A DNA stretch of 64,000 bases, from contig QIKV01000061.1 in assembly GCA_003233115.1 (NCBI GenBank), positions 889 to 64,888 on the forward strand, written 5' to 3'. The notes under the pieces are model-generated. The model had not been told where the DNA came from, did not search any database, and saw only the letters and a list, made by a program, of their open reading frames with translations. Numbering within the stretch: position 1 is the stretch's first letter; every line of letters starts with the position of its first letter. Origin of the DNA: Oceanospirillales bacterium (GTDB taxonomy: Bacteria; Pseudomonadota; Gammaproteobacteria; Xanthomonadales; SZUA-36). The position numbers and the translations under genes were made by a program. Of this stretch, positions 11,572 to 29,655 are shown piece after piece.

Positions 11572-12501
11572 ATGCGTATCAAATTACCATGCAAAAAATA
11601 CTACTTAGTCAGGATTTCTTACTCGGCCTGCATGCTGACCCTGGCTTTGTTGTTAACTGCATTTGCTCCACTTGCCCTGGCCGATGCCGACCGGGCGGTG
11701 TTCTGGGCCATCGAGAAGGATAGCCAACCCGCTGGCTATTTGCTCGGCACCATTCACAGCGAAGATCCGCGGGTGCTGGAATTCTCAGAAGATTTTCTGC
11801 GCAAACTAAGAAGCAACAAAGTGTTTGCCATGGAAATGGTGCCTGATCTGCCGACGCTGGCGCGCCTGACCGACTATATGCACTACCCGCCGGGCAAAAC
11901 GCTCGAGTCGGTGATCGGGCCTGAACGGTTTGGGGCGCTGGTAACGGCACTGTCTGTCTACAAGGTGCCGACAGAGTTCATCGAAAAAATGAAGCCCTGG
12001 GCAGCCATGATGACGTTGAGTACGCCACCACCGGAAACCGGTTTTTTCATGGATCTGTCCCTGTCCCTGCGGGCCACCGGGAATGGACTCAGGGTAGTCG
12101 GTCTGGAAACGCTCGAGCAGCAACTATCGTTTCTGGAAAACATGCCCCTGCCGATGCAGTTGCGTCTGCTGGATCAGGCTATTGCAGAATCCGGACGGGC
12201 CACCGAAGTACAAGACCGGATGGTCGATGCCTACCTTAAAAATGACCTGGTATTACTACAGACGCTGTCTGATGCTGAATTGATGGCGGTGGGAATTGAT
12301 GAACGTAATTACTTTTTAGAGTCAGGTATCATCGCCCGCAACCACCGTATGTTGGAATCATTGCTGCCCCTGCTTGAAAACAACAGCGTATTTGTCGCCG
12401 TGGGCGCGCTACACCTGCCGGGTGACGAAGGCCTGCTTGGTCTGCTACGCCACAACGGCTATGAATTGAAACCCCTGGAAATGCCGTTTATTGGCGAATA
12501 G
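11572..12501 (+). CDS. TraB/GumN family protein (exported)
   Basis: Signal peptide followed by VFWAIEKDSQPAGYLLGTIH...VAVGALHLPGDEGL, the TraB/GumN hallmarks. The start is ambiguous (ATG 11572 or 11632). The track ORF's N-terminal 140 aa is antisense to rnt and was discarded. Confidence 0.75.
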   Translation: MRIKLPCKKYYLVRISYSACMLTLALLLTAFAPLALADADRAVFWAIEKDSQPAGYLLGTIHSEDPRVLEFSEDFLRKLRSNKVFAMEMVPDLPTLARLTDYMHYPPGKTLESVIGPERFGALVTALSVYKVPTEFIEKMKPWAAMMTLSTPPPETGFFMDLSLSLRATGNGLRVVGLETLEQQLSFLENMPLPMQLRLLDQAIAESGRATEVQDRMVDAYLKNDLVLLQTLSDAELMAVGIDERNYFLESGIIARNHRMLESLLPLLENNSVFVAVGALHLPGDEGLLGLLRHNGYELKPLEMPFIGE

Positions 12502-12525
12502 ATCAGAGGTTCCCCTAGGGAAGGC

Positions 12526-13221
12526 TCAACCTCTGCCAGTAAATTCCGGCACCACCAGCGCCACAGCACCGGCACCGAGCAGGCTTAAGCCCCACAAAGG
12601 TTCAACCCAGACCGTTGCCAGGCTCAGGACTATCAAAGCCAGTCCTGCGGACTGCAGCCCTCCTGTGCGGTCATTCTCCAGGTGGCCGCGACCGGTCATG
12701 CTGACCAGCAAATGATCCAGTGAGAACTTGCCTCCGCCAGCAAACACCAACGGCAACAGCATCACTACGAACAGCAAAGGCAGCTTAAAGTTGCCGTAGC
12801 CTTTGGGGGTGATGACATAGCCATTCCAAAGCTCTGCCAGGCTGCTCCATTCTGCAGGCCAGTGCACGGCGGCTGTTGCCACTACTGTAATAACGATGAG
12901 TGAAATTGCGGCGAAGCGCGTAAACAGCCCCAGTAATAGCATCACGGCAAATACCAACTCACCCCAGGTGGCCATAAACCAGTTCAGGTTGACGGGAATC
13001 TGGTCGAATGGAAATGGGAAGCCTTTTTGCCAGTCTGCCCAGGGAATATCAGCGAACCAGTTTTCCCCGTGCAGTTTTGTGACGCCGGAATCCCAGAACT
13101 CCCATGCCATGATCAGCCTGAGCACAAGTGGCCAGACGTAGTCGCCAGAGGCACGCAAGCGGGAGGTAATATTATCGTAGAAATTACTCATTTTGGTGTC
13201 CGCTTCGGTTAAATATTCCAC
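12526..13221 (-). CDS. DoxX-family membrane protein, Hvf/Buf cluster-associated (HvfX-like)
   Basis: Multi-TM DoxX pattern ([21 protein letters not shown]...). GTG start with AGAGGA upstream. Last gene of the DUF692/DUF2063 operon. Confidence 0.75.
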
Positions 13222-13255
13222 TTGAATGCATCCTCTGGATGCGGTGTTTTGCTTA

Positions 13256-14050
13256 TCAGGGCCTGGTTCCCAGTACGATCTCTTTATGCCTCAGGTTTTG
13301 TAGCAGGTCAGCGCCACCTTCAACGACGACTTCCGGGTTGGGATGATGGATTTCCTCAGCCACTGCGTGCAGCAACTCCAGACCTGTAGACTGCGGTTCT
13401 GCATTCATTTTTTGGAGTAAGAGCCGCGCAATATTATTTATTTGCATGAATTTCACAACGAAGTCGCGCTGCCGCCAGACCAGCAGATGGGTTGGCTTTT
13501 CCGGTGCTTCCCTGGGTTGGAACCCGGTGCAGATGCGGTGGACCGGGTAGGTGTAGCTCAGCGGCCAGGCAAGGGGCGACAATAGCGGGATACCGTTTAG
13601 CAGATCGCCGTGTTTGTCTGCTGCAATATCATCATGATCTGCTTCATCGAGCGACAAGGCCAGCTCCACCCATTCGTAATGGGCCAACTCCAGCATAAAC
13701 GGCGGGTCACCCTCACGGTTCTGGCGCTGATCCTGCAGGTATTTCATAAACTCGCGTGGTATTTCCGGGAATAACGGCGTGTGGCAGCGGTATTCCTTGT
13801 AAAAATCACGGCACAGACTGGTCCAGTCATCGTCACTGAACAAGGTTTTAAGTACGGGGAAATTACCCGACATAAAGCTCTTGATGTTATTGAAAAACAG
13901 GTCCCGGTAGATTCCCATGCGACGGTCTTCAATACCGGCGGGTGCAGCCGCAGATTGTGGATCCCGGATATGGGCAGTAAAACTGGCCTGTAACCTGGCG
14001 AGGGCTTCAGGCGCGGCGTCGCTTTTCATCTGTAGGCTCTTCTGCTGCAT
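13256..14050 (-). CDS. DUF2063 protein, HvfC/BufC-like partner of the MNIO enzyme
   Basis: F..HIRDP......[19 protein letters not shown]-terminal DUF2063 signature. Overlaps the 3' end of the DUF692 gene. Alternative start at 14029. Confidence 0.8.
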
Positions 14051-14924
14051 GTTCTGTAGTTTTGGGTTCTGTTAACGTGGATCCATCCCGGCTCCATTTG
14101 TCCTGGATGTCTCTGATTTTCTGTACTTCGGCCAACAACTCAATGATCGGGGGAATATTGAAATCCCGCTCCAGCAGCGTGGGAAACACGCCAAAGAATT
14201 CGTAGGCCTTGTCCAGCAGATCCCACACATTACCAATAACATCGGCACCATGTGTATCCACTATCAGGTCTTCAGCTACGTTGTAGTGGCCGGCAATATG
14301 GCCGTAGGCGATCCGTTCAGCAGGCAAGGCCGCTAAAAACTCAACCGGATCATAGCTGTGGTTCACGCTGTTAACGTAAATGTTGTTTATATCCAGCAGC
14401 AGATCGCAGTCAGCTTCATCAATGATCGAAGTAATAAAATCTATTTCACTTAGTTCAGCACCGGGTGCTGCGTAATAAGATGCGTTTTCAATGGCCATGC
14501 GCTGGCCGAGCATATCCTGAACCTGGCGGATACGCCCCGCAACGTATTTAACGGCTTCTTCGGTAAACGGAATAGGCATCAGGTTGTAAAGGTGACCATC
14601 GTCCGTGCAGTAACTCAGATGTTCACTGTATGCACGGATCTGGTACTGATCCATAAATTTCCGCAGCTTGTGGATAAAGGTCTGATCCAGTGGGGATGGT
14701 CCGCCGATCGACAGCGACAGGCCATGGCAGATAAATGGCAGGCGCTGTGTCAGCGTGCGGAAAGATTGCCTTCTCTGGCCGCCAACGTTGATCCAGTTTT
14801 CAGGCGAAATCTCCATGAAATCAACAATTCCATCAGTGATTTCAGGGGAGGCCTGAAGCGGGCCCAAATGAACCCGCCGCAAACCAAGTCCTGCACCCGT
14901 TACCGGGTGTTGAGGGTGACTCAT
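14007..14924 (-). CDS. DUF692 multinuclear non-heme iron oxidase (MNIO), HvfB/BufB/MbnB-like
   Basis: GAGLGLRR.H......DFMEISPENW...HGLSLSIGG...YSEHLS... is the DUF692 TIM-barrel signature. Starts 11 nt after the precursor stop. Confidence 0.85.
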   Translation of the reverse strand: MSHPQHPVTGAGLGLRRVHLGPLQASPEITDGIVDFMEISPENWINVGGQRRQSFRTLTQRLPFICHGLSLSIGGPSPLDQTFIHKLRKFMDQYQIRAYSEHLSYCTDDGHLYNLMPIPFTEEAVKYVAGRIRQVQDMLGQRMAIENASYYAAPGAELSEIDFITSIIDEADCDLLLDINNIYVNSVNHSYDPVEFLAALPAERIAYGHIAGHYNVAEDLIVDTHGADVIGNVWDLLDKAYEFFGVFPTLLERDFNIPPIIELLAEVQKIRDIQDKWSRDGSTLTEPKTTEHAAEEPTDEKRRRA

Positions 14925-14935
14925 TGCATCAAGTC

Positions 14936-15526
14936 TCAGACGTTACCGCCACACGAGCCGTCCTGGGCCTTCATATGCTTTTCACCGCAAGAGCCTTCTT
15001 TGCCTTTCTCGCCCATTTCTTTCATCTTGCTCATGTCGCCTTTCTCGCCACAGGAACCTTCTGTACCCTTCTCACCCATGGTGCTTTTCTCGCCACAGGA
15101 ACCTTCTTTACCCTTGCCCATGTTGCCATTCATGCTGCAAGAACCTTCACCGCCCTTGCCCATCTTGTCCATCTTGCCTTTCTCGCCACAGGAGCCTTCT
15201 TTACCCTTGCCCATCTTGTCCATCTTGTCCATCTTGCCTTTCTCGCCACAGGAGCCTTCTTTGCCCTTGCCCATTTTGCCGTCCATGCTGCAAGAGCCTT
15301 CCCCGCCTTTGCCCATCTTGCCCATCTTGCCCTTGTCACCACCACATTTGCCTTCCCCGCATTTGCCTTCCTGACCCTTGTCGCCTGCCAGTTGGTAGCC
15401 GGCATCCAGGTCAGAAGTCACAAAAGGATTGCCACCGGCCAAAGCCGTTGAAGAGACCGCAAGGGATGAAACAAATGCGACGCCGACAGCGGCTGCAACA
15501 GGGTTTAACTTTAATTTACTAGCCAT
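14936..15526 (-). CDS. Secreted repeat-rich Cys/Met-rich RiPP precursor, HvfA / EGKCG-bufferin-like
   Basis: Sec signal peptide (...SSTALA), NPF...GY segment, then EGKCGEGKCG followed by eight more [E/D]GSC[G/S] motifs. That gives 10 Cys, all within the motif, separated by K/M/G-rich spacers. GGAGG RBS. First gene of the operon. Confidence 0.8.
   Translation of the reverse strand: MASKLKLNPVAAAVGVAFVSSLAVSSTALAGGNPFVTSDLDAGYQLAGDKGQEGKCGEGKCGGDKGKMGKMGKGGEGSCSMDGKMGKGKEGSCGEKGKMDKMDKMGKGKEGSCGEKGKMDKMGKGGEGSCSMNGNMGKGKEGSCGEKSTMGEKGTEGSCGEKGDMSKMKEMGEKGKEGSCGEKHMKAQDGSCGGNV
14985..15375. repeat. Imperfect tandem DNA repeats inside the precursor gene
   Basis: A near-identical unit, catcttgcctttctcgccacaggagccttcttt(a/g)cccttgcccat, occurs at 15171 and 15231 (60-nt period). 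Related ctcgccacaggaaccttct units occur at about 15043 and 15078. Confidence 0.8.
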
Positions 15527-15549
15527 TTGGTAGAACCTCCACAGTTTAA

Positions 15550-15577
15550 AAAAAACCCGCTAACATTCAGTGCGGGA
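15550..15577 (-). terminator. Candidate intrinsic terminator/attenuator (weak stem, strong U-tract)
   Basis: Minus strand reads CCCGC-ACTGAATGTTA-GCGGG followed by T8. It lies about 260 nt downstream of the nth stop and about 25 nt upstream of the precursor start codon. Confidence 0.4.
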
Positions 15578-15836
15578 ATATTATTTCGGCGCCAATGCAC
15601 CTCTATTTACAACCCGTCAAGAGTCAATAAAGACCTCTTTCAGTAAGCCAAAAGAAGCAATCTATGCCCGGATTGATTCCGGAGACTAGCAATTCTTCAG
15701 ACGTTTTCCAAGGAATAATCCGTATTCGATGCTATAGACCGGCGCTCGGAGAGGATTATTACAAATGATTTCCGGAGTGCCCCCTTTTGCAGCTTTAGCG
15801 CCTGCTTGGAGTGCTGGAATGGCCGCAGCAGACCAT

Positions 15837-16475
15837 TCATCCATAGCCTTTTTGTTTTCCGGTTCTGCACAAGTCGCGGACGATGCATTCCGGGCAATTT
15901 GGTTTGCGTGCCTTGCACACATAACGCCCGTGCAGGATTAACCAATGGTGGGCATTGAGCAGGTATTGCGAAGGCACACTTTTCAGAAGTTTACGCTCAA
16001 TGATCAGGGGGGTTTTGCCAACTGCCAGGCCGGTGCGATTGGCCAGTCGGAATATATGCGTGTCTACTGCAATTGCAGGTTCGCCAAATGCGGTATTCAA
16101 TACAACATTGGCTGTTTTGCGACCTACACCGGGCAGGGCTTCCAGGGCTTCACGGCTTGAAGGTACTTCGCTGGCATGACTGGCAAGCAGAATCCTGCAG
16201 GTGGCGATGATATTTTTTGCCTTGGCGTTAAACAAACCGATGTGCTTGATATAGGCTTTCAAGCCTGCTTCGCCCACAGCAACCATGGCGGTTGGCGTAT
16301 TGGCGACTTTATACAGCCTGCGGGTGGCAAGATTGACGCTGACGTCCGTGGCCTGAGCTGAGAGTATGACTGAAATCAGCAATTCAAAATTGGATTGGTA
16401 TTCGAGTTCGGTGGTCGGTTGCGGATCGATGGCCTGCAAACGCCGGAAAAACTCAGCTCGGTCGTCAGGCTTCAT
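15837..16475 (-). CDS. nth: Endonuclease III
   Basis: HhH-GPD motif (LPGVGRKTANVVL) and a C-terminal 4Fe-4S cluster loop (C..RKPNCPEC...C). I chose the start MKPDDRAEFF at 16475, which overlaps the rnfE stop. Confidence 0.9.
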   Translation of the reverse strand: MKPDDRAEFFRRLQAIDPQPTTELEYQSNFELLISVILSAQATDVSVNLATRRLYKVANTPTAMVAVGEAGLKAYIKHIGLFNAKAKNIIATCRILLASHASEVPSSREALEALPGVGRKTANVVLNTAFGEPAIAVDTHIFRLANRTGLAVGKTPLIIERKLLKSVPSQYLLNAHHWLILHGRYVCKARKPNCPECIVRDLCRTGKQKGYG

Positions 16476-17145
16476 GCGCACTCTGAACCTGCTCTGCGGG
16501 CCAGCGGCCAGCCCTTGCTTCCCACGCATTGCGGGCTGCAATCAGCAATGCCAGGCCGATAAAAGCACCCGGGGGCAACATGGCCAGCAGAAAGCCGGGG
16601 TGTTCCGGGAAAATAGTCAGTGTGAGGCTTTTGGCCCAATCCCCCAGCAGCATGTCCGACCTGAAGAATAAGGTGCCGCGCCCCGTCAACTCTCTTAGTG
16701 CCCCAAGTAGAACCAGTGTAATGCTAAACCCGAGACCGGTGGCAAAACCGTCCAGTACTGATGGCAGCAGCTTGTTTTTTGAGGCAAATGTCTCGGCTCG
16801 CCCGATGATGACGCAATTGGTCACAATCAACGGCACATAGATGCCCAGCACCACGTAAAGATCATAGAAAAAGGCATGCATCAGTAACTCAATCATTGAC
16901 ACTACCGAGGCGATGATCAATACGAATGCAAGGATACGTATTTCGGGCCTTAACAGCCCGCGCAGCAGCGACACGGTAAGACTGGACAGTATCAGGGTCA
17001 GTAGGGTTGCCAGTCCCAGTGCCAGGCCGTTGACCACGGTGTTGGTGACCGCTAACAGCGGACACAGGCCGAGTAAAACAGCCAGTCCGGTGTTCCGCCG
17101 CCAGGCGCCGTCTGTGAGTATCTTCTTTAAGCTGGTGTCGGTCAT
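16465..17145 (-). CDS. rnfE: Rnf electron transport complex subunit E
   Basis: Polytopic RnfE/NqrD-like sequence (LLGLCPLLAVT...). Position in the rnfABCDGE order. Confidence 0.9.
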   Translation of the reverse strand: MTDTSLKKILTDGAWRRNTGLAVLLGLCPLLAVTNTVVNGLALGLATLLTLILSSLTVSLLRGLLRPEIRILAFVLIIASVVSMIELLMHAFFYDLYVVLGIYVPLIVTNCVIIGRAETFASKNKLLPSVLDGFATGLGFSITLVLLGALRELTGRGTLFFRSDMLLGDWAKSLTLTIFPEHPGFLLAMLPPGAFIGLALLIAARNAWEARAGRWPAEQVQSAHEA

Positions 17146-17166
17146 TGTGGGCCAGTTGATTTAGGG

Positions 17167-17814
17167 TCACTCATTGCGAATCACCGCCTGTGAGGGTGTA
17201 TCAAACAGTTCCTGCTGATGTGCCTGAAAGTACAATAACGCAGTGTGTACCGCCCTGACCACAGCCCGCGGCGAAATCGTGGCGCCGGTAAATTGATCAA
17301 ACTCGCCACCATCCCTTTTTACTGCCCAGCCACTTCCATCCGGATTGTGTAAAGACCTTTGTGCAAATCCGAATACCCAGTCGCTCTTTTCAGCCTCAAT
17401 CGGATCGCCAAGGCCGGGGGTTTCCCGATGAGATATCACCCGCACGCCGAGTATCGTCCCGGCGGTGTTGATGGCGACCAAAAGCCGTATGTCACCATTG
17501 TAACCACCCGGCGCGGTGATGATCATCAGGACGGACACAGGCTTGCCATCCAGGCGGGCCCGATACACAGTGACCGCTGCCGGATGTCTGAAAAACTCGG
17601 GGTCGCTGATTTCGATCACGTCCTCAAACAGATCATTGTTGTAGGAGCCAACCGGAACGATTTCGTTAAGCTGCTGCAGCACACGGCGTTTTTCCTGTGC
17701 GACGATGCGGTCATGTGTCAGGTAATTCACACCTGCCAGCAAAGCTGTTCCCAGCAGGGCGATGACGCCCAGTAGCAGGCCGCCGCGTACCACCGGTTGC
17801 AAAGCTTTACTCAT
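17167..17814 (-). CDS. rnfG: Rnf electron transport complex subunit G
   Basis: N-terminal TM anchor plus an FMN-binding domain (…DQFTGATISPRAV…). Confidence 0.9.
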   Translation of the reverse strand: MSKALQPVVRGGLLLGVIALLGTALLAGVNYLTHDRIVAQEKRRVLQQLNEIVPVGSYNNDLFEDVIEISDPEFFRHPAAVTVYRARLDGKPVSVLMIITAPGGYNGDIRLLVAINTAGTILGVRVISHRETPGLGDPIEAEKSDWVFGFAQRSLHNPDGSGWAVKRDGGEFDQFTGATISPRAVVRAVHTALLYFQAHQQELFDTPSQAVIRNE

Positions 17815-18852
17815 TTATCTGGCTCTTTCACCGTATATCCTCGGACGGGTATAGCGGTCAATCAACGGTGCTGCCATGTTCATCAGCAACACCGCAAATG
17901 CAACCCCATCCGGGTAACCGCCCCAACGCCGGATTACCAGTGTAATGATACCGACTCCGGCGCCAAAAATAAGCTGGCCCTTTTTGCTGACACAACCGCT
18001 GACCGGGTCGGTGGCGATGAAAAAGGCTGCCAGTATCAATGCGCCGGAAAAAACGTGTTGGATCGGGGACGGACTGCTATCCGGGTCGGCCAGCCAGAAA
18101 GGCAGGCTGAGCAGGATTACGCTGCCGATCACTGCGACCGGCACCTGCCAGCTAATAACACGTTTATACAACAGGAAGAAACCGCCCAATACAAACCAGT
18201 TCGCAACCCATTCCCAACCCACTCCGCCGAAGTCGCCAAATAAGGTGGACTGACGGATTTCAGAGACCATACGGCCTGAATCTATACCGGTTTTTAAGGT
18301 ATCCAGCGGGGTTGCCTGGGTGATGGCATCCCAACCGCCGGTCAGCGGAACGTGGCCTGTGAAAATAATCAGCAGACTGTCGAACAGTCCCGGACTCTGG
18401 TCAGCGAGAGCCAGTGGGGGCAACCAGGCAGTCATGGCTTGCGGGAAGCTGATCAGAACCACTGCGTAACCCACCATGGCCGGGTTGAATACATTCCTTC
18501 CCAGGCCGCCGTACAGGTGCTTGGCAAAACTGATGGCGAATAACATGGCGATCAAGCTAATCCACCATGGCGCGAGCGGTGGTATGCTCAGTGCAAAAAG
18601 GACTGCCGTTACCACTGCGCTGTAGTCGTTGATGAACGGCTGAAGTGGCTGCCTCCGCATGCGTAACATCAGAAATTCGAAGAGAAGTGCAAATCCTGTT
18701 GCCAGCAGAATTTGTATCAGGATGCCGGGGCCGAAAAACCACGTGTAAGCCAGTACACCGGGTAGCAGGGCAAAGAGCACCAGTAGCATCACTTTGGCCA
18801 CAGTTGTTCGCGGTGGCACATGCGGTGCGTCGCTGGTTGGGAAGCTACGCAT
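17815..18852 (-). CDS. rnfD: Rnf electron transport complex subunit D
   Basis: RnfD/NqrB-like polytopic protein (…FNPAMVGYAVVLISFP…, …FFIATDPVS…). Confidence 0.9.
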   Translation of the reverse strand: MRSFPTSDAPHVPPRTTVAKVMLLVLFALLPGVLAYTWFFGPGILIQILLATGFALLFEFLMLRMRRQPLQPFINDYSAVVTAVLFALSIPPLAPWWISLIAMLFAISFAKHLYGGLGRNVFNPAMVGYAVVLISFPQAMTAWLPPLALADQSPGLFDSLLIIFTGHVPLTGGWDAITQATPLDTLKTGIDSGRMVSEIRQSTLFGDFGGVGWEWVANWFVLGGFFLLYKRVISWQVPVAVIGSVILLSLPFWLADPDSSPSPIQHVFSGALILAAFFIATDPVSGCVSKKGQLIFGAGVGIITLVIRRWGGYPDGVAFAVLLMNMAAPLIDRYTRPRIYGERAR

Positions 18853-20380
18853 CAGCAGAATTCCCGTTGGCTCGATTCACACGGTCTTTTGATTTGGCTT
18901 TGTCTTTGAGCATTTGTTTGCGCCGGGCCATTTTTTCGGCACGCTCGTGCTCTTTCTGCAGCAGGCGGCCTTCGCGGGCTTCAAATCGCTTGCGGGCCAG
19001 GTCCGCTGCCTGTTTTGCAATCGCCCGCTGCCGAAGTTCGTCTTTACCATAGCGGAACCAACTCACCAGCGGGATGTGGCTGGGGCAGACAAAATCGCAA
19101 CAGCCACATTCAATGCAGGCCGCAAGTCCGTATTCCTCAACTGTGTCCCACCAGCCGTTTTTAATTTGTTTGTACAATTGTTGTGGCAGCAAGATCGCCG
19201 GGCAGGTGCGCGAACACTCACCACAGCGGATGCAGGGCATCTCCGCCTGTGGCGTGGTGATATCACGTTGCGTCAGTGCGAGAATGCAATTGACAGCTTT
19301 AACGACCGGTGTGGCATCAGTAGAGACGGCATACCCCATCATGGGCCCGCCGACAACCAGGCGGGCAACGTTGTCGCTATACCCACCACAAACTTTGACC
19401 AGATGAGAAAAGGGCGTGCCAATCAGGGCCAGCAGGTTGCGGGGTTGTGCGATGCCGTTGCCGGTGACCGTGACATAGCGTTCAATCAATGGTTTGCCAG
19501 CGGTGACGGCTTCAGCGACAGCGGCGGCCGTTGCGACATTCTGGCACAGCAGGCCGAGGTCGGAAGGCCGGCCACCGTAAGGCACTTCCAACCCGGTCAA
19601 CACCTGGACCAGTTGCCGTTCACCACCTTCAGGATAGATCTTGGTGATTTTAACGACTGTGATACGCTTGCATTCAGCACATTCTGCGGCGTAGGTGAGT
19701 GCTTCCTGAACCGCACCCATCCGATCTTCGATGGCGATAATCACCCGTTCGGCGCCGAGTGCATGTCTCAAAATGCGCGCACCGAGGATAATTTTATCCG
19801 GCTGTTCGCGCATCAGCATTTCATCACAACTAATATAGGGCTCACATTCTGCGCCGTTCAGGATCAAGGTGTGGATTTGCCTTTCACGTCCGTCCCGGGC
19901 CTTGATATGGGTGGGAAACACCGCGCCGCCGAGGCCGACGAGGCCGCTTTCCTGCAGCTTCTTGATCAGTACATCGGGATGTGTATTTTGTACATCGTTG
20001 ATGGGCTCAAGCTCCACCCACTGTTCTTTTCCATCGGGCCGGATGACCACACACGGACCGGTCATGCCCGAAGCGTGTGTCATCAACCTGTCTTCCACCG
20101 TCTCAACAGTTCCTGAGGTCGGGGCGTGCACCGCCACGCCTGCTTTACACCGGCCAATTTGCTGGCCTTTGCGCACCCGGTCACCGGTTTCTACCAGCGG
20201 CCTGGCAGCCTCACCGGCGTGCTGGAGCAGTGGTACTACCAGGATATCCGGCAACGGTGGTCGCTCTACCGGTACCCTGCAGGAGATACGCTTGTTATGC
20301 CTGAGCCGCAGGCCGCCATGAAAATGGTGCGTGTGTTTGCCAGCATCGCGCGCGATTTCTACCGGGTCAGCATACGTCAT
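18845..20380 (-). CDS. rnfC: Rnf electron transport complex subunit C
   Basis: FHGGL N-terminus, a NuoF-like NADH/FMN region, and two CxxCxxCxxxCP ferredoxin motifs ([24 protein letters not shown]). I chose the start at 20380, an ATGA overlap with the rnfB stop. Confidence 0.9.
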
Positions 20381-20934
20381 TGGGTAACCGCCAGGTATGG
20401 TGGTACCAATGGCCGCGGGCTGTGCCACTGTCGGATGCCCGCTGCGAGTTCAACCACGTCAATGCAATCCACCGGGCAGGGTGGCAGGCACAGGTTGCAA
20501 CCGGTACATTCAGACGCGATGACGGTGTGCATTAGTTTTTTTGCGCCGACAATGGCATCGACCGGGCAAGCTTGCATGCATAGGGTGCAACCGATACAGT
20601 AATGTTCATCAATTACCACCACGGTTTTTGGCTTTTCCTCGCCATTTTCCGGGTTCAGGGGCTTGATTTCGCGACCCAGCAAGGCAGCCAGCGCGCGTAT
20701 ACCTGCCGCACCGCCGGGCGGACACTGGTTGATATCAGCCTCGCCGTTGGCCATCGCCCTTGCGTAGGGCCGGCAACCGGAGTAGCCACACTGTCCACAC
20801 TGGGTTTGTGGCAGCAGGGCGTCGATCTGGCCGACCACGGAATCCGACCTGCCCCGCAGGCGCATACCCATCCAGCCAAGTCCCAGCCCGAATACCAGTC
20901 CCATGATGGTAATTGTCGTGATAGCGGTCAACAT
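20377..20934 (-). CDS. rnfB: Rnf electron transport complex subunit B
   Basis: N-terminal TM region, a CGQCGYSGC cluster, and two 4Fe-4S ferredoxin motifs ([24 protein letters not shown]). Confidence 0.9.
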
Positions 20935-23694: not shown

Positions 23695-24777
23695 TCAGCA
23701 GGCAGGTGTGTGAGCTTGAATGAACCTGCCGATCTCCGTCCAGGCTTCAGTCGCTTGCGGCAGTTCCGGTTCGAAAATTTGCCAAATGTGCACCATATCA
23801 GTCCAGGTCTGCAATTTAACCGGCGATCCCGAGGCACTGGCCTTGTAGGCATAGCGACGGGCATCATCCAGCAGCATTTCGGCCTCAGAGGCCTGCACCA
23901 GTATTGGAGGCAGGCCTGAAAGATCCCCGAACAGTGGTGACAGGATGGGGTTGGCGGGTCGTACCCGGTAGGTCCAGAGGACCGACCAACTCTTGGCGAA
24001 TTGTGGGAGCCTGTTGAGCACCCGCATCAAAGGCGCCAGCATGAAGTCGGTGGCTTCGTTGTTGCGGATACTGTTACCGGAGAAAGTGCTGTCGGTCAAA
24101 GGTGACAGTGCCACCACCGCGTCGGGGGCACGCAAGCCTTTATCCCGCACCCAGGCGACCAGCGACAGGGCGAGGTTGCCACCGGCAGAATCACCTGCGA
24201 AGAACAGTTGCCGGGGTGCTCCAGGCCCGTCTGGCCCATTTTCGAGCAACCACTGATAGCTGATCCTGCAATCCGCAACACAATCCATAAGCTTGTGTTC
24301 CGGCAACAGCCGGTAGTCGATTGCCAACACAGCACAGCCTGAGATTTCGGAGAATTTGCTGGTCATGGTGCGGTGGCTTTTCGGGCTGCCCATGATGAAT
24401 CCACCGCCGTGGATATACAGTACCCGCCTTGAATTGTCGGCCCCCGGGGCGATGACCCACTCGGCAGGTACACCACCGGCATCAACCGGCAGGAACTGAC
24501 TCACATAATCACGACCAGCGCTCATACTGTCCATGGTCGCGCGCGCTGCCTGCATGTGATGCCTGGCCACCGCATGCGAGACTTGCCCGGCGATATCTTT
24601 AACCATCTCAACCACCGCCGCATGCTCCGGACCCGGGCCTTTAGGATTGGTAAACTGGCTTACCACGTCCGCGGCACGGGGGGCAGGGTATTCACCGGGG
24701 AGTTTGCCGCGCAGGTAAAATCTCTCAAAGGCCCAGAATATCAATAAGATAACTACAAGGTAGGTTAGCAAGGTCAT
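23695..24777 (-). CDS. Alpha/beta hydrolase, hormone-sensitive-lipase (family IV) type esterase/lipase, membrane-anchored
   Basis: HGGG oxyanion motif (YIHGGGF), a GDSAGG nucleophile elbow and an N-terminal TM helix. Confidence 0.8.
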   Translation of the reverse strand: MTLLTYLVVILLIFWAFERFYLRGKLPGEYPAPRAADVVSQFTNPKGPGPEHAAVVEMVKDIAGQVSHAVARHHMQAARATMDSMSAGRDYVSQFLPVDAGGVPAEWVIAPGADNSRRVLYIHGGGFIMGSPKSHRTMTSKFSEISGCAVLAIDYRLLPEHKLMDCVADCRISYQWLLENGPDGPGAPRQLFFAGDSAGGNLALSLVAWVRDKGLRAPDAVVALSPLTDSTFSGNSIRNNEATDFMLAPLMRVLNRLPQFAKSWSVLWTYRVRPANPILSPLFGDLSGLPPILVQASEAEMLLDDARRYAYKASASGSPVKLQTWTDMVHIWQIFEPELPQATEAWTEIGRFIQAHTPAC

Positions 24778-24872
24778 CTCTTATTTCCCCACGTTAGCTC
24801 TGTTTGGTCGCTCAGCCACAGCCGGGAATCCAATAGGCTAATCGCGATGATCAGTAGTGAATTAAGTTACAA

Positions 24873-26378
24873 TTGCAATTATACAGCGTCGACTTAACGG
24901 GTGCTCAGAAATTGACCGTAAAACCCATCAAAGAACCGATCTCCAAGGTTGATACCGCCTGGCTGCGCATGGAGCAGCCGACCAACTTGATGATGATCAA
25001 CGGGGTACTGATCCTGGACGAGAAGCTGGACCATGCGAAGCTGCTTGAGACCATTGAACAGCGCTTTCTGGCGTTCAGACGTTTCCGCCAAAAAGCCGTG
25101 GATAGCCCCGGTGGTGCCCACTGGGTGCTGGATGACGATTTCAATATAAATGACCATGTTCTGCGTACTGCCCTGCCGGGTGCTGCAGACCAGGCGGAGC
25201 TTGAGCTGCTGGTATCTCATCTGGCCAGCACCCCGCTGGACCCATCGCGGCCCCTGTGGCAGTTTCATGTGGTCGAAAACTACGTGGAAGGGCCGGCGTT
25301 AATTATTCGGATCCACCACTGTATTGCCGATGGTATAGCATTGGTACAGGTATTCCTTTCTCTTACCGACCCTACACGGGGCGGGCGGTCTTCTGCGCGC
25401 AAGCCGGAAACATGGAAAGAGCGACGGGCCAATGAGTCGATGGTATTCAGGCGCTTACTGGATCCAGCCCGTGAGGGACTGGATTTCGCCATGCACGTGG
25501 GCAGGCGGCTGCTCCAGGAGGGAATGAAAGTGTTGCAAAATCCGGCTGTTGCAGGCGACTATGCCACGGAAGCAAGTGCAATTGTTCGCGAGTTGGCCAA
25601 TTCGTTAACCCTCAGAGACGACCCCCTGACCCGCTTCAAAGGTCGCCTTGGCGTGCGCAAACAGGTGGCCTGGGCCGAACCATTGTCGCTTGCTGAAGTG
25701 AAAGGTGTGAGTAAAGCATTTGGCTGCACAGTCAATGACGTGCTTATCGCAGCGGTAACAGGTGCATTGAGGCAGTTCATGATAGCAGAGGGTGACAGTT
25801 CCGGCTCCCTGCAGGACATCCGCGTCACCGTGCCGGTCAATCTGCGCCCGCTTGAGCACGCGCAGGAGCTCGGTAACCACTTCGGACTGGTGTTTCTGTC
25901 CTTGCCGCTGAGCATCGACAACCCACTGGAGCGGTTGTACACCGTTAATGCCCGCATGAATGAATTGAAGTCCTCGAAACAGGCTACTGTTACGCTGGGA
26001 TTCCTCGCCGCGCTCGGCATGGGGCCTGCTGCGTTACAGAAGCCGGTTCTGGACATACTCAGCAAAAAGGCTACGGCCGTGCTGACCAATGTTCCAGGCC
26101 CGCAGCAACCGGTTTACCTGGCCGGGTCAAAAATGAAAGAAATGATGTTTTGGGTGCCGCAGAACGGCGGCGTCGGGCTGGGGATCAGCATACTCAGTTA
26201 TAACGCCAGGGTATATTTTGGATTAATCGCTGACCGTCGCCTGGTAGCAAAGCCAGCTGCAATTATTTCCCGCTTCAACAGGGAGTTTGAAAAACTCCTG
26301 TACATGGGCCTGATGTTGCCGCTGGATGGCCGGCCCACCCCGCAAAGTGCTGAGGATTTGGTGCGAATAACTGAATAG
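24873..26378 (+). CDS. Wax ester synthase/diacylglycerol acyltransferase (WS/DGAT)
   Basis: Catalytic HHCIADG motif, N-terminal PISKVD..WL..E pattern and a C-terminal NVPGP motif. The start is uncertain (TTG 24873 or another nearby non-ATG codon). Confidence 0.85.
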   Translation: MQLYSVDLTGAQKLTVKPIKEPISKVDTAWLRMEQPTNLMMINGVLILDEKLDHAKLLETIEQRFLAFRRFRQKAVDSPGGAHWVLDDDFNINDHVLRTALPGAADQAELELLVSHLASTPLDPSRPLWQFHVVENYVEGPALIIRIHHCIADGIALVQVFLSLTDPTRGGRSSARKPETWKERRANESMVFRRLLDPAREGLDFAMHVGRRLLQEGMKVLQNPAVAGDYATEASAIVRELANSLTLRDDPLTRFKGRLGVRKQVAWAEPLSLAEVKGVSKAFGCTVNDVLIAAVTGALRQFMIAEGDSSGSLQDIRVTVPVNLRPLEHAQELGNHFGLVFLSLPLSIDNPLERLYTVNARMNELKSSKQATVTLGFLAALGMGPAALQKPVLDILSKKATAVLTNVPGPQQPVYLAGSKMKEMMFWVPQNGGVGLGISILSYNARVYFGLIADRRLVAKPAAIISRFNREFEKLLYMGLMLPLDGRPTPQSAEDLVRITE

Positions 26379-26395
26379 CAGCGCGGCGGCGCGCC

Positions 26396-27247
26396 TCACT
26401 CCAGTTCAGCCAGCGCCGCTTCAATGTCCAGCTTTTCCATGGCATCTGTTGCTTGCAGCTCAGATGCCTCAACGTACAGATCAGTTACCTTGTCAAGTCT
26501 GTCATCCCCAAATAGCAGGTAAAGCCCGTTGCCGTATTCAATGTGTGCAATGGGCGAATTTGGGGTTAGTTCCAGCGCCTTTCGGAAGTGCATCAACGCT
26601 GTGTCTGTGCTTGCGCCATAAGTCAGTTTCCCCAGCATTTTGCCGACTTTACCAATGACTTCAGCATGGTACATGCCTAGCGCGATATGTGCGTCTGCAT
26701 GATCGGGCTCCAGTTTCAGGGCGTGCTCAAGGCTGGACTGGATTTTGCCCCCCAGTCCCTGGCGCAAGGCCTTGATGATGGAAATGCTCTGGCTGTAGCG
26801 GCCCAGGTTGAAGGCATGGAAATAATAGCTGTTCGGATCATCCGGCAAGGTCTGGATAGCGGCTTCGGCACGTTTTACCGCGGCCAGGAAGCAGGTTCGC
26901 GCTGTGCTCTCATCAGGTTCCAGATAGGTTGCATATATTGCTGCTGCCTTGTTGGCCGGGGCGTGTGCCAATTGACCACATTGCCCTGACAAGCTGGTTG
27001 CCTGCTGGAAGTCACCCGCGTGAAAACAACGCCACGCGGCTTGCATGATGTCCGCCAATGCTGACGCGTCACCAGCGTATGACGGCGGTGCTGCAGCCGG
27101 TGCCTGTTCGAGCGCTCGCTGAACCCACCCGGCATCCGGGAATTCCACACGATCACCGCCGTGCAACTCAGGCCACGACTCAAGCAGTTTACTGCCTTCG
27201 TATATGAAGGCTGCGTTGTTATGTGGAAAACTTTTCCATTTCGACAT
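26396..27247 (-). CDS. Hypothetical helical (TPR-like) protein
   Basis: 283-aa ORF with clean coding appearance and a helical-repeat character (…HADAHIALGMYHAEV…ALELTPNSPIAHIEYG…). No family recognised. Confidence 0.5.
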   Translation of the reverse strand: MSKWKSFPHNNAAFIYEGSKLLESWPELHGGDRVEFPDAGWVQRALEQAPAAAPPSYAGDASALADIMQAAWRCFHAGDFQQATSLSGQCGQLAHAPANKAAAIYATYLEPDESTARTCFLAAVKRAEAAIQTLPDDPNSYYFHAFNLGRYSQSISIIKALRQGLGGKIQSSLEHALKLEPDHADAHIALGMYHAEVIGKVGKMLGKLTYGASTDTALMHFRKALELTPNSPIAHIEYGNGLYLLFGDDRLDKVTDLYVEASELQATDAMEKLDIEAALAELE

Positions 27248-27372
27248 TCGTCTGATTTCCGTGATTCGGGTGAATTAAAAAAGAGTCCTGCTTTTAGTGT
27301 GTTTACTCTAATTCTTTTGCCTACTATGGGGCCATCAACAGTTAACCCTCACTGAAAATAAAGGAGATTGAG

Positions 27373-28125
27373 ATGACCACAAAGACATTAAAAAAGAAGG
27401 TACAGGCGAAGCCCGCAATAAGCAAGTTCACCACCCCTGTGGTTGATTCTGCACGGGACGTCTGGCGGGCCGGACTGGGTGCAGTTTCTATGGCGCAGAC
27501 TGAAAGTAGCAAGCTGATTGAACAGGGCAACCAATTGTTTGACAGGTTGGTATCTGAAGGTTCGAAGCTGGAGAAAAAAACCCGCCACGAGGCAGAAACT
27601 GCTATCGGTGATATCAGAAATGGTGTGGAATCGAAGCTTGATACCGTGCGCCAGCAGGCGACTACAAACTGGGATAGCCTTTTGGGCCTGTTCGATGAGC
27701 GTGTTTCAGATGCCCTGGACCGCTTGGGAGTTCCCACAACAAAGGACTTGAACAAGCTTTCTGGACATGTACAAAAAATGTCCCGGCAAGCTACCAGGAA
27801 CTGGAAGGAACTGGAAAATGTGTTTGATGAGCGTGTGTCGGGTATTTTGAATAGCCTGCACGTTCCCGGCGCTGAAGATCTCGACAAGTTGACTGGTAAT
27901 GTACAAAAGGTATCCAGAGAGGTAGCAGACAATCTGCAAAAGCTGGAAAGTACCCTCGAAGCACGGGTAGCGGAGATCCTGGACGGTCTCGGAATCCCGA
28001 CCACTGATGATACCGGTAAGCTGTCCGCTGAACTGGCGAAACTCTCCAGGCAGGTAGCTGCCATGGAAAAGGAGATAAAGGCGAGCACCAGGACTGCGCC
28101 GCGCAAGGCCGCGGCTACCAGTTAG
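27373..28125 (+). CDS. Phasin-family (PhaI/PhaF N-domain-like) granule-associated protein with a triplicated C-terminal module
   Basis: P.V.SARDVWRAGLGA.S.AQ.E..KL...G..LF..LV.EG.KLEKK matches the pseudomonad-type PHA granule-associated protein family. It is followed by three ~44-aa repeats (DERV....L..LGVPT..D...L...VQK.SRQ). AAGGAG RBS. Confidence 0.75.
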   Translation: MTTKTLKKKVQAKPAISKFTTPVVDSARDVWRAGLGAVSMAQTESSKLIEQGNQLFDRLVSEGSKLEKKTRHEAETAIGDIRNGVESKLDTVRQQATTNWDSLLGLFDERVSDALDRLGVPTTKDLNKLSGHVQKMSRQATRNWKELENVFDERVSGILNSLHVPGAEDLDKLTGNVQKVSREVADNLQKLESTLEARVAEILDGLGIPTTDDTGKLSAELAKLSRQVAAMEKEIKASTRTAPRKAAATS

Positions 28126-28130
28126 CGTGG

Positions 28131-28150
28131 GGTGGACATTTATGTCCACC
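28131..28150 (+). terminator. Hairpin downstream of phasin 1 (possible terminator)
   Basis: ggtggacat-tt-atgtccacc is a perfect 9-bp inverted repeat, with a T-rich tract a few nt downstream (ggtttattt). Confidence 0.45.
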
Positions 28151-28231
28151 GTACTGGTTTATTTGAATGCGACCGGGTGGGCCTGAATGTCCACCCTACT
28201 GTTGGTCAGACGTTCCCGTTTTAGGGTGTAT

Positions 28232-28248
28232 GCTCTAAATTTTAGAGC
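28232..28248. promoter_or_regulatory. Perfect 8-1-8 palindrome, candidate operator upstream of phasin 2
   Basis: gctctaaa-t-tttagagc lies 50-66 nt upstream of the phasin-2 start codon. Confidence 0.4.
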
Positions 28249-28297
28249 TAACATGCAAACAACATTCACAAATGCTCAAGTGAGCAAGGAGTTTGAA

Positions 28298-28825
28298 ATG
28301 GCTAAGAAGACATTAAAAAAGAAGGTAATGAAAAAGAAGGTTCAGGCAAAATCTTCAGCAAGTTATCTTGCCGCACCTGTGGTTGAATCTGCACGTGAAA
28401 TCTGGCTGGCGGGCCTCGGTGCATATTCTGTTGCACAGGCTGAAAGTGGCAAGCTGATCGAACAGGGTAACAAGCTGTTTGAGAAACTGGTTTCCGAGGG
28501 CAACAAGCTGGAGAAAAAGACCCGTAGTCTGGCTGAAACTGCTGTTGGCGATATCAAAGGCGGCATGGAATCGAAGGTTGAAACCGTTCGTAAGCAAGCC
28601 GTTGATAACTGGGATAAACTGGAAAATATCTTTGAAGACCGCGTTGCGCGGGTGCTGGGCCGGCTAGGTGTGCCGACGGCAGAGGATGTCAACAGGTTGT
28701 CTGAGCGGGTGCAGAAGTTGTCACGTCAGGTTACCGCGCTGTCCACGGCCAACTCCAGCAAGGCGGCAAAACCACGCAAAGCTGCGGTAAAAAAGAAGGC
28801 GGCAAAGAAGCCGGCCGCTAAATAA
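28298..28825 (+). CDS. PhaF-like phasin with a short Ala/Lys/Pro histone-H1-like tail
   Basis: The N-domain is paralogous to the 27373 gene (PVVESAREIWLAGLGAYSVAQAESGKLIEQGNKLFEKLVSEGNKLEKK). It has one copy of the 44-aa module and the tail KAAKPRKAAVKKKAAKKPAAK. AAGGAG RBS before ATG 28298. Confidence 0.75.
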   Translation: MAKKTLKKKVMKKKVQAKSSASYLAAPVVESAREIWLAGLGAYSVAQAESGKLIEQGNKLFEKLVSEGNKLEKKTRSLAETAVGDIKGGMESKVETVRKQAVDNWDKLENIFEDRVARVLGRLGVPTAEDVNRLSERVQKLSRQVTALSTANSSKAAKPRKAAVKKKAAKKPAAK

Positions 28826-28837
28826 GCAGAATATTCG

Positions 28838-28868
28838 GGGCCGGCATGATTGCCGGCCCTTTTCTTTC
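28838..28868. terminator. Bidirectional rho-independent terminator
   Basis: gggccggca-tgat-tgccggccc is a 9-bp stem followed by ttttctttc. It lies between convergent phasin 2 and tetR. Confidence 0.75.
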
Positions 28869-29505
28869 AGGCCTGACGGTAAGTTTGCGCCAGGGTTTTG
28901 AGCTGGCTTGCTTCAGGTTCACGCAGGTAAGGCAGGAGCAGGTACAGAACTCGCGCCACCGATCTGGAAAGCACTGTGCCATCTGCAAGACCGGGGTCAC
29001 CACGCACTTCGGCGTATGGAATCCAGTAAGTCATCAACAACAACGTGTTGTCGGCCAATGCCTCGCTCTCGCGTTCACAAATTTTCATAATGCCGCTATT
29101 CTGCAGGCCTGCGATCAGGCCCAGCAACGAAGTTCGCTGCCGCTCGAGCAGGCCATGAAAGGCCCGCTGGAGGTCTCTGATGCGGGTATAAAGATCATTC
29201 AGGTCACGAAAAAGGAAACGAAATCGTCCCATGGCCTCAAAAATGAGATGCAGGCGCAGCCATAAGTCCTCTATATCGGGTACAGTATTTTCCTCGATTT
29301 CCAGCAATGGCTGGATGTGCAATAAATACCGCTTAAACAGTTCCAGGGCGATATCATCCCTGCTGCGGAAATGGTAATACAGGTTGCCTGGGCTGATGTC
29401 CGCCTCGTCAGCGATATGGTTGGTGCTGACGTTGGGTTCACCAAACTCATTGAAAAGAAACAAGCTGGTCGAAAGCACAAGCTCCCTTGTATTGCGGCGT
29501 GTCAT
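28867..29505 (-). CDS. TetR/AcrR-family transcriptional regulator
   Basis: N-terminal HTH (LFNEFGEPNVSTNHIADEADISPGNLYYHF). Divergent from the fatty acyl-CoA reductase gene. Confidence 0.85.
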   Translation of the reverse strand: MTRRNTRELVLSTSLFLFNEFGEPNVSTNHIADEADISPGNLYYHFRSRDDIALELFKRYLLHIQPLLEIEENTVPDIEDLWLRLHLIFEAMGRFRFLFRDLNDLYTRIRDLQRAFHGLLERQRTSLLGLIAGLQNSGIMKICERESEALADNTLLLMTYWIPYAEVRGDPGLADGTVLSRSVARVLYLLLPYLREPEASQLKTLAQTYRQA

Positions 29506-29655
29506 ACCCCGTCAATCCGGTTTTTCATCTGATGTCTCCTTCGCCGTTCGCGCCCGGCGGCAACTGTTGATTGTAGCAGGGTGGGATATGTTTGCCGTTC
29601 TGATAAGATTGCACAGGTTACCCATACGCTTTAGGAACGGGATCGGAGGACTGAC

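Follow-up and report, generated by a model that had tools for sequence, protein, structure and literature searches.

The DNA analysed here, a stretch of 64,000 nucleotides (nt) from contig QIKV01000061.1 of an Oceanospirillales bacterium (the whole stretch is called the window below), carries on its minus strand a gene for a 196-residue precursor peptide together with genes for a maturase, its partner protein and a membrane protein. The locus is a canonical hvfA-hvfB-hvfC-hvfX cluster, also known under the names oxazolin, Buf_EGKCG and captophorin; this assignment follows from the NCBIfam matches of all four genes and the Pfam matches of hvfB, hvfC and hvfX as well as from conserved residues that the maturase has in common with the characterised enzyme FonB. 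Methionine-rich linkers and two sites of the EGSCS type make the precursor a rare, undescribed variant of a known family of peptides made on the ribosome and modified after translation (RiPPs).

The precursor gene and its operon

The features of the gene and of the operon are as follows.

14936..15526, minus strand: hvfA-like precursor gene, an open reading frame (ORF) with ATG start, 196 amino acids (aa)
15437..15526, minus strand: Sec-type signal peptide, residues 1-30 (MASKLKLNPVAAAVGVAFVSSLAVSSTALA, followed by GG), assigned heuristically from sequence features
15383..15430, minus strand: conserved NPFVTSDLDAGYQLAG segment, residues 33-48, C-terminal of the signal-peptide region
15341..15370, minus strand: canonical EGKCGEGKCG pair of motifs (residues 53-62), covered by the NF050137 match
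14945..15340, minus strand: Met/Lys/Gly-rich array, residues 63-194, with eight [ED]GSC[GS] sites (from the sequence)
15287-15301 and 15134-15148, minus strand: two EGSCS sites (motif), residues 76-80 and 127-131
15245-15259, 15185-15199, 15092-15106, 15047-15061 and 14984-14998, minus strand: five EGSCG sites (motif)
14948-14962, minus strand: one DGSCG site (motif), residues 189-193
14007..14924, minus strand: hvfB, MNIO maturase, 305 aa; NF003818 at 428.5 bits (cut-off 360), PF05114 (MbnB_TglH_ChrH) at 340 bits
13256..14050, minus strand: hvfC, DUF2063 partner protein (PME1) with a RiPP recognition element (RRE); NF050145 at 320.8 bits (cut-off 142), PF09836, PF22106
12526..13221, minus strand: hvfX, DoxX-family membrane protein; NF050144 at 132.1 bits (cut-off 80), PF07681

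A GGAGG ribosome-binding site is located at 15536-15540, 9 nt 5' of the precursor ATG. The putative signal peptide, as read from the sequence, has a basic n-region (K4/K6), a hydrophobic core and a cleavage site between A-L-A and GG; in an AlphaFold2 (AF2) model built on a 30-sequence alignment, its hydrophobic stretch is a helix (residues 9-23). We found the signal peptide kept in all the precursor relatives compared, and the use of a Sec signal peptide in place of the usual RiPP leader is a hallmark of the HvfA/Buf_EGKCG family (PMC12452194). In the segment that follows, N33, P34, F35, L40, G43, Y44, A47 and G48 are invariant among 30 aligned family members. By analogy with the leader/RRE logic of PMC13097082, the NPFVTSDLDAGYQLAG segment is probably the recognition region for HvfC/HvfB. 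Both the signal peptide and the NPF..GY segment had been pointed out in an initial annotation of this DNA; the strand, unstated there, is minus.

The protein has exactly 10 Cys residues, all within [ED]G[KS]C[GS]. The translated ORF reproduces the initial motif tally (EGKCG twice, EGSCG five times, EGSCS twice, DGSCG once) and contains the Met/Lys/Gly linker strings quoted with it. The 196 residues include 49 Gly, 33 Lys, 17 Glu, 17 Met and a single His (H184, within EKHMK). Past the signal peptide, the AF2 model shows no secondary structure, no strands and a predicted local distance difference test (pLDDT) score of 44; the core is predicted to be disordered, which would fit the "stochastic binder" idea of PMC13097082. 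Long ORFs also overlap the gene in other frames or on the other strand, at 14592-15374 (+), 14924-15451 (+) and 15130-15405 (-); they are by-products of repetitive low-complexity sequence.

Over residues 49-64, the precursor scored 22.7 bits with the NCBIfam model NF050137 (KCGExKCG_twice; cut-off 19.5); it had no Pfam match, DUF2282 included. Searches with the single sequence gave 1426 homologues at E<=1e-3, and a profile gave 4973; the layout common to them is a signal peptide, NPF..GY, EGKCGEGKCG and an EGSCG array. The window HvfB is 63% identical to FonB, with R16, R17, D254 and F255 aligned to FonB R15, R16, D249 and F250. In FonB, Asp249 is catalytic, while the Arg15/Arg16 pair and Phe250 gate the substrate (PMC13097082). 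The same HvfB failed both the BufB model (258.5 bits, cut-off 310) and the MbnB model (50.8 bits, cut-off 325). The data presented here show the family to which the precursor belongs, its operon and motif set, the conserved residues of the enzyme and a predicted disorder, and the NCBIfam and Pfam matches bear out the earlier proposal of an MNIO-substrate precursor of the HvfA/Buf_EGKCG family. Clusters of MNIO and PME1 genes are present in about half of the Pseudomonadota reference genomes (PMC13097082).

A collagen reading was rejected: the NCBIfam matches to SclA/SclB (26.7 bits versus a cut-off of 325) and the PF01391 tags on homologues are false positives caused by Gly-X-Y-like composition. 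In the operon, we also observed that the hvfB and hvfC ORFs as listed overlap by 44 nt (14007-14050); the two may be translationally coupled. HvfB has an acidic/basic C-terminal tail of ~30 residues past the family model, and the model match of HvfC begins at residue 20, the listed hvfC start being provisional.

It is likely that the gene product is an HvfA-type ("Lys-Cys"/EGKCG captophorin/oxazolin) precursor of a ribosomally made, modified periplasmic metallophore. Two observations speak against this. The score against NF050188, the equivalog model of Haemophilus influenzae HvfA, was 20.1 bits, not reaching the cut-off of 95. In addition, typical type-1 Buf_EGKCG proteins are built from 17-residue double-EGKCG repeats, with a beta-helix as structural model (PMC12452194), whereas the window precursor has neither, only one such pair and no strands in the AF2 model. 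Since NF050137 was passed and NF050188 failed, the precursor is classed, at the level of sequence models, as a member of the HvfA family and not as an orthologue of the H. influenzae protein. The single-site architecture is common to most of its close relatives.

Length, number of sites and the Ser-type motif turned out to be ordinary. For the comparison we used 200 distinct relatives; they came from the best database matches (of the profile matches, the best 120 of 4973) and from loci recovered through HvfB. The number of Cys per relative varied from 4 to 16 with a median of 7, and 8 of the 200 had at least 10; the range of 4-16 Cys was also found in loci whose HvfB is 58-85% identical to that of the window. 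For example, the close relative L005, whose HvfB is 79% identical, carries 16 sites in 202 aa. In a published survey, the family has ~2,000 members, whose lengths run from 31 to 506 residues; 58 Cys are found in the longest (PMC12452194). The array is therefore not "unusually long", as had been thought at first. The expected variation in copy number, however, is real, given the 4-16 Cys among relatives and the 5-8 sites in Microbulbifer precursors (PMC12538549).

The Ser-variant motifs are no novelty either. EGSCG was as common as EGKCG (577 versus 604 occurrences in 163 relatives), and 167 of the 200 relatives had at least one [ED]GSC[GS] site. A typical relative consists of a signal peptide, NPF..GYQLAG, EGKCGEGKCGGDKG and then 6 x (EKGx-EGSCG). 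In NgoA of Neisseria gonorrhoeae, which has QGSCG once, EGSCG twice and EGKCG four times, all 7 Cys are modified (PMC13097082 Fig. S18), and at the third motif position the FonBC enzyme accepts A/R/T. Such precursors would be under-described by annotation pipelines or RiPP mining tools that look for EGKCG alone. We also observed that the residue before EGSCG was repeatedly His or Met (EKGHEGSCG, EKGMEGSCG) in the relatives P0003, P0032, P0052 and L002/L021; the use of ligand-type residues in linkers may extend beyond the Met-rich clade.

Methionine-rich linkers and the repeats that encode them

The eight linkers C-terminal of EGKCGEGKCG have 16 Met in 95 residues (17%). The numbers per linker, in order, are 2, 2, 3, 2, 2, 1, 3 and 1, so that no linker is Met-free; in the mature protein, Met makes up 16 of 166 residues (9.6%). 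The spacing MxxM occurs six times in the linkers (p=0.003 versus shuffled linker residues). Against these 16 core Met, the 200 relatives had a median of 0 and a mean of 0.78. Only six of them reached at least 6 core Met, namely P0147 (11), L016 (10), L001 (7), L014 (7), L006 (6) and P0047 (6). Counting motif copies and Met across homologues, the check proposed in the initial annotation, thus gave 4-16 Cys and a core Met median of 0, and the Met/Lys-rich spacers noticed there proved rare. As for the possibility that Ser motifs and Met spacers are both already common and characterised, it holds for the Ser motifs but not for Met (6 of 200).

Four of the six Met-rich proteins (L016, L001, L014 and L006) are the closest relatives of the window precursor, with HvfB 79-83% identical and an "NPFVT" N-terminus common to all. 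These four and the window precursor have in common the linkers EKGDMSKMKEMGEKGK, EKHMK and, after the double motif, GKMDKM. The loci L017-L019, whose HvfB is 83-85% identical, have an "NPFST" N-terminus and no Met. The remaining two, P0147 and P0047 (locus L064, HvfB 68%), belong to a separate lineage with the linker GDKxEMKEKMMGE.

Locus L064, 525-953 (GCA_006243175.1, contig VAPB010546673.1): P0147, three GDKxEMKEKMMGE[ED]GKCG repeats, 11 core Met, 6 Cys

Because this lineage is separate and its linker different, Met enrichment appears, from the sequences compared, to have arisen at least twice within the family. The whole-genome shotgun series VAPB, VAPC and VAPH are the source of P0147 and also of L014 and L016.

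With the Met-rich core alone (residues 62-185) as a query, a word-index search gave no match at E<=1e-3, and an exhaustive comparison with 1.84 billion representatives gave only 8 matches, to collagen-like or other low-complexity proteins. The composition of the core is biased; therefore, its rarity was judged from full-length and profile matches and from the loci found through HvfB. We found no mention of Met-rich linkers in the literature searched on HvfA, bufferins, captophorins and the MNIO landscape, and within that literature the combination of heterocycle motifs with Met-rich spacers is, as first supposed, without earlier description.

At the DNA level, the array is made of units nested within one another.

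15082..15382: nested DNA repeats (Tandem Repeats Finder and repeat search)

Tandem Repeats Finder gave a 153-nt period at 15082-15382 (2 copies, 80%), a 60-nt period at 15155-15280 (2.1 copies, 93% matches) and three 9-nt arrays (15155-15178, 15206-15236 and 15309-15332). The 9-nt arrays read CTTGYCCAT on the + strand and encode M-[DG]-K, the coding unit being ATG-GRC-AAG. The repeat search added a duplicated block of 123 nt (15067-15189 versus 15220-15342, 85%). The imperfect tandem repeats described initially were thus recovered as 9-nt, 60-nt and 153-nt units. The duplication reported at 15171/15231 exists too, but the term "near-perfect 60-nt" fits only its 3' 44 nt, which differ at one base; overall, 50 of 60 positions are identical in this register. 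The relative L016 has the same linker order as the window precursor minus two modules. In another locus, L008 (at ~2520-2960; OY760942.1, a Xanthomonadales metagenome-assembled genome (MAG) chromosome), the precursor ORF shifts from one frame to another within its (EGEGSCG)n array. The break is either a sequencing or assembly error or a pseudogene, such arrays being open to mis-assembly.

Each of the two modules absent from L016 carries one EGSCS site, and these modules arose via the 153-nt duplication. Among the relatives compared, EGSCS was found elsewhere only in P0044. Whether the two sites are processed or possibly left unmodified is, in our estimate, evenly balanced. Two facts count against their modification: at 1246 of the 1254 sites in the family (99.4%) the residue after Cys is Gly, and at motif position 5 FonBC accepted Ala alone among the variants tried, which did not include Ser.

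The leader between nth and hvfA and the gene neighbourhood

Upstream of the precursor gene, the interval to nth is occupied by a conserved leader.

15527..15766, minus strand: conserved non-coding leader of ~240 nt, nth-hvfA interval (alignments of 5, 40 and 35 loci, L001-L057)
15755-15763, minus strand: invariant TGTAATAAT box, extended -10-like (leader alignments)
15634-15657 and 15588-15601, minus strand: leader hairpins (leader alignments)
15670-15675 with 15610-15615, minus strand: AATCC/GGGTT long-range pairing (leader alignments)
15556-15576, with T8 at 15548-15555, minus strand: terminator-like hairpin and T8, ending 7 nt before the ribosome-binding site (leader alignments)

In five close loci the leader had a mean column identity of 83%, compared with synonymous changes in 23% of the codons between the window and L016. 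Its blocks remained recognisable in 35-40 loci, with HvfB down to ~65% identical. The stem sequence of the terminator-like hairpin varied among loci while its pairing was kept. In a four-helix model of the leader, 84% of cells were paired compared to 35-49% with slid partners; the model had 77 double-change cells (29-44 in the slid controls) and a covariation of 0.368 (at most 0.16). The GGCGC hairpin showed GC-to-AU swaps in 10-12 of 40 sequences. On the other hand, the minimum free energy of the single sequence was unremarkable (z = -0.49), and an Rfam scan of the leader assigned no family (best E=5). Since the indels are not multiples of three, a small ORF in the leader is argued against. 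The leader could be an attenuator or riboswitch-like element of the hvf operon or, equally, a conserved nth terminator and promoter region. A sequence search of the window found no second copy above chance, and a sigma-70 promoter scan of 12300-16000 gave no match.

The genes rsx/rnfC-D-G-E, nth and hvfA-B-C-X lie on one strand (window 12526-20428). This order was kept in 36 of 64 loci, that is, wherever the upstream flank is present. The copper-peptide operon thus stands directly 3' of redox and oxidative-damage genes. Farther away, at 23695-31644, the window has unrelated genes of neutral-lipid storage: a hormone-sensitive-lipase-like esterase, a wax ester synthase/diacylglycerol acyltransferase, a phasin, a TetR regulator and a fatty acyl-CoA reductase-like two-domain protein.

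Comparison with known systems and the role of the linkers

HvfA of H. influenzae resembles the window precursor in its Sec signal peptide, in EGKCGEGKCG and in the four-gene operon with HvfBCX, and its Cys residues are converted to a Cu(I)-binding heterocycle. HvfA differs, however: its 6 modified Cys lie in three AEGKCGEGKCG repeats, two further Cys form a disulfide, and its linkers lack Met, compared to one EGKCGEGKCG pair, eight single Ser-variant sites and Met-rich linkers in the window. NgoA (gonophorin) likewise mixes EGKCG and [EQ]GSCG in one Cu-binding peptide, but it has 7 sites, and its linkers are rich in Ala/Ser/Lys/His (ASKSA, KKAHKHTKASKAKAKSA) with no Met. The FonA/FonBC system (fontiphorin, Fontimonas thermophila) contains the closest characterised enzyme, FonB, while FonA itself has seven sites, all of the Lys-type EGKCG, with linkers EKKADAKA and no Met array. 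The modification of HvfA, formerly described as oxazolone/thioamide, has been reassigned as 5-thiooxazole (PMC13097082; bioRxiv 10.64898/2026.06.05.730506), a structure established for fontiphorin, oxazolin and gonophorin (PMC13097082). FonA binds up to 4 Cu and gonophorin 1-2, possibly in a stochastic manner with aggregation (PMC13097082). Oxidation of the HvfB/HvfC type uses a mixed-valent di-iron cofactor (bioRxiv 10.64898/2026.07.17.739211).

Bufferins Buf1 (DUF2282) and Buf2 are similar in their MNIO-modified Cys, copper binding and Sec signal peptides, and contain 5-thiooxazoles (PMC12452194). Methanobactins also have MNIO-modified Cys and bind copper, but they differ by oxazolone/thioamide groups, leader peptides and their role as secreted chalkophores. 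Marine and sediment gammaproteobacterial proteins (P0001, P0005, L003 and L005) have the same N-terminus, NPF..GYQLAG and EGKCGEGKCGGDKG, followed by 4-14 x (EKGx-EGSCG). The C-terminus of P0001, ...EKHMKDAEGSCGGNV, is the same as that of the window precursor, and the nth-hvfABCX synteny is common to the loci. Their linkers have 4-5 residues and are nearly Met-free, whereas those of the window have 7-16 residues with 1-3 Met each.

Among copper proteins, PcoE/SilE are disordered and carry HxxM/MxxH motifs; MxxM "Mets motifs" are of the Ctr1 type. With PcoE/SilE, CopC/PcoC and CusF the precursor has in common a periplasmic setting (predicted here), a high Met content (12% in PcoE) and MxxM-type spacing, a likeness of composition only; no homology to any of them was found for the precursor by Pfam or NCBIfam. 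Moreover, CusF pairs Met with His (Met2His) and PcoE/SilE use HxxM/MxxH, whereas the window precursor is almost free of His and its Met strings are interleaved with RiPP sites. Met-rich periplasmic Cu(I) sites are documented in CopC/PcoC (MXXMPGM), in PcoE (12% Met, picomolar Cu(I)), which binds multiple Cu(I) ions, and in CusF (PMC9182242).

Modification, export and Cu(I) binding of the window peptide may be pictured by analogy with the characterised homologues FonA, HvfA and NgoA. The precursor would be made with its Sec signal peptide and bound by HvfC/HvfB before export. In the [ED]G[KS]CG pentamers, HvfB/HvfC would turn Cys into 5-thiooxazole, which absorbs at 305 nm, by a 4-electron oxidation with a change of -4 Da per Cys, and the Sec pathway would export the disordered Lys/Gly-rich peptide. 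The thiooxazole sulfurs would sequester Cu(I) and so buffer copper stress, with the Met strings acting as additional soft ligands and the abundant Lys keeping the metal-loaded chain soluble. The linkers themselves would have grown by slippage and duplication of the 9-nt ATG-GRC-AAG units and of 60- and 153-nt blocks, leading to MxxM-type strings.

Judged by composition, Cu(I) thioether sites in the Met linkers are plausible. By analogy with PcoE, the Met thioethers might be extra low-affinity Cu(I)/Ag(I) ligands that raise capacity or pass metal to the thiooxazoles, the reading that we prefer, at somewhat under an even chance. A more far-reaching reading takes the linkers as a selected second ligand tier: the product would be a hybrid metallophore whose MxxM strings capture Cu(I)/Ag(I) and either hand it over to the neighbouring 5-thiooxazole sulfurs or bind it jointly with them, the trait having arisen at least twice. 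We hold this reading tentatively, at about one chance in three. In its favour, comparison of the window with L016 over 165 aligned codons gave 38 differences that are synonymous and 22 that are not, while all the core Met of L016 (10 of 10) and of L006 (6 of 6) are retained in the window. Such retention across orthologues suggests constraint, without establishing it.

Several observations count against a selected ligand tier. At 13-18% non-synonymous divergence, the probability of retaining 10 of 10 and 6 of 6 Met by chance is ~0.24 and ~0.30, and of the 8 Met of L001, the start codon counted, only 4 align to Met of the window precursor. MxxM spacing follows automatically from the 9-nt tandem unit and does not require selection. 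The precursor has one His, unlike the HxxM/MxxH pattern of PcoE/SilE. Finally, among the larger ORFs annotated from the window start to ~46 kb, we found no copper-homeostasis or methionine sulfoxide reductase (Msr) genes beyond the hvf operon.

A rival explanation that we rate just as tentatively is that the Met linkers are neutral low-complexity filler, with AAG changed to ATG by one transversion and Met then spread by slippage and duplication through spacers that do no more than hold the Cys sites apart. Such an origin agrees with linkers built from 9-nt, 60-nt and 153-nt tandem units, with linker residues that vary freely in the family (A/K/E/G/H/M before EGSCG), with the predicted disorder of the region and with a Met retention between orthologues that is not statistically significant alone. 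It is less easily reconciled with Met in 8 of 8 linkers when 194 of 200 relatives have at most 5 Met and the median is 0, with Met kept across orthologues despite substantial synonymous divergence, and with a second lineage that is high in Met and has a different linker sequence.

It is rather improbable that the Met are sacrificial antioxidants which, oxidised by hypochlorous acid or reactive oxygen species and perhaps repaired by Msr, shield the oxidation-prone thiooxazole sulfurs without binding metal. In favour, captophorin clusters are reported to be induced by oxidative stress as well as by copper and gold (PMC13097082), and the genes directly 5' of the operon in this clade are always rsx(rnf)C-D-G-E and nth, with functions in redox processes and oxidative damage. 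However, annotation of parts of the window turned up neither msrPQ nor another oxidative-stress gene, and MxxM strings beside metal sites fit Cu(I) ligation at least equally well. Least likely is that the repeat number, and hence the count of 10 sites, is an artefact of repeat collapse or expansion in the assembly: the gene is internally repetitive, the L008 assembly has its frame break inside a repeat array, and the exact precursor and HvfB sequences are without a match in the public collection that would give an independent assembly for comparison, but the copies are diverged (80-93%) and not identical, the longest near-identical stretch of ~44 nt is shorter than an ordinary read, the frame is intact over 196 codons and the orthologue L016 shows the same layout.

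Captophorins/oxazolins are a very widespread copper-stress system; at issue in their metal binding are stoichiometry, ordered versus stochastic binding and aggregation. Their precursor linkers evolve quickly through repeat slippage. The window protein, L016, L001 and L006, set against Met-free orthologues with ~80% identical enzymes, make up a natural comparison set, which bears on a possible influence of linker chemistry on capacity, affinity, selectivity or solubility. With respect to habitat, the genome that carries the Met-rich relative L001 is a MAG with the label BMS9Abin30. The paper that describes BMS9A, a core drilled from a massive sulfide deposit in the deep sea, does not discuss bin 30 itself (PMC11427306). 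We regard the link of Met-rich precursors to a sulfide habitat as a lead only. If the Met residues are inert, the precursor is one more member of a known family; if the hybrid metallophore is real, it would raise the metal capacity or shift the metal selectivity of such peptides in bacteria living on metal-sulfide minerals.

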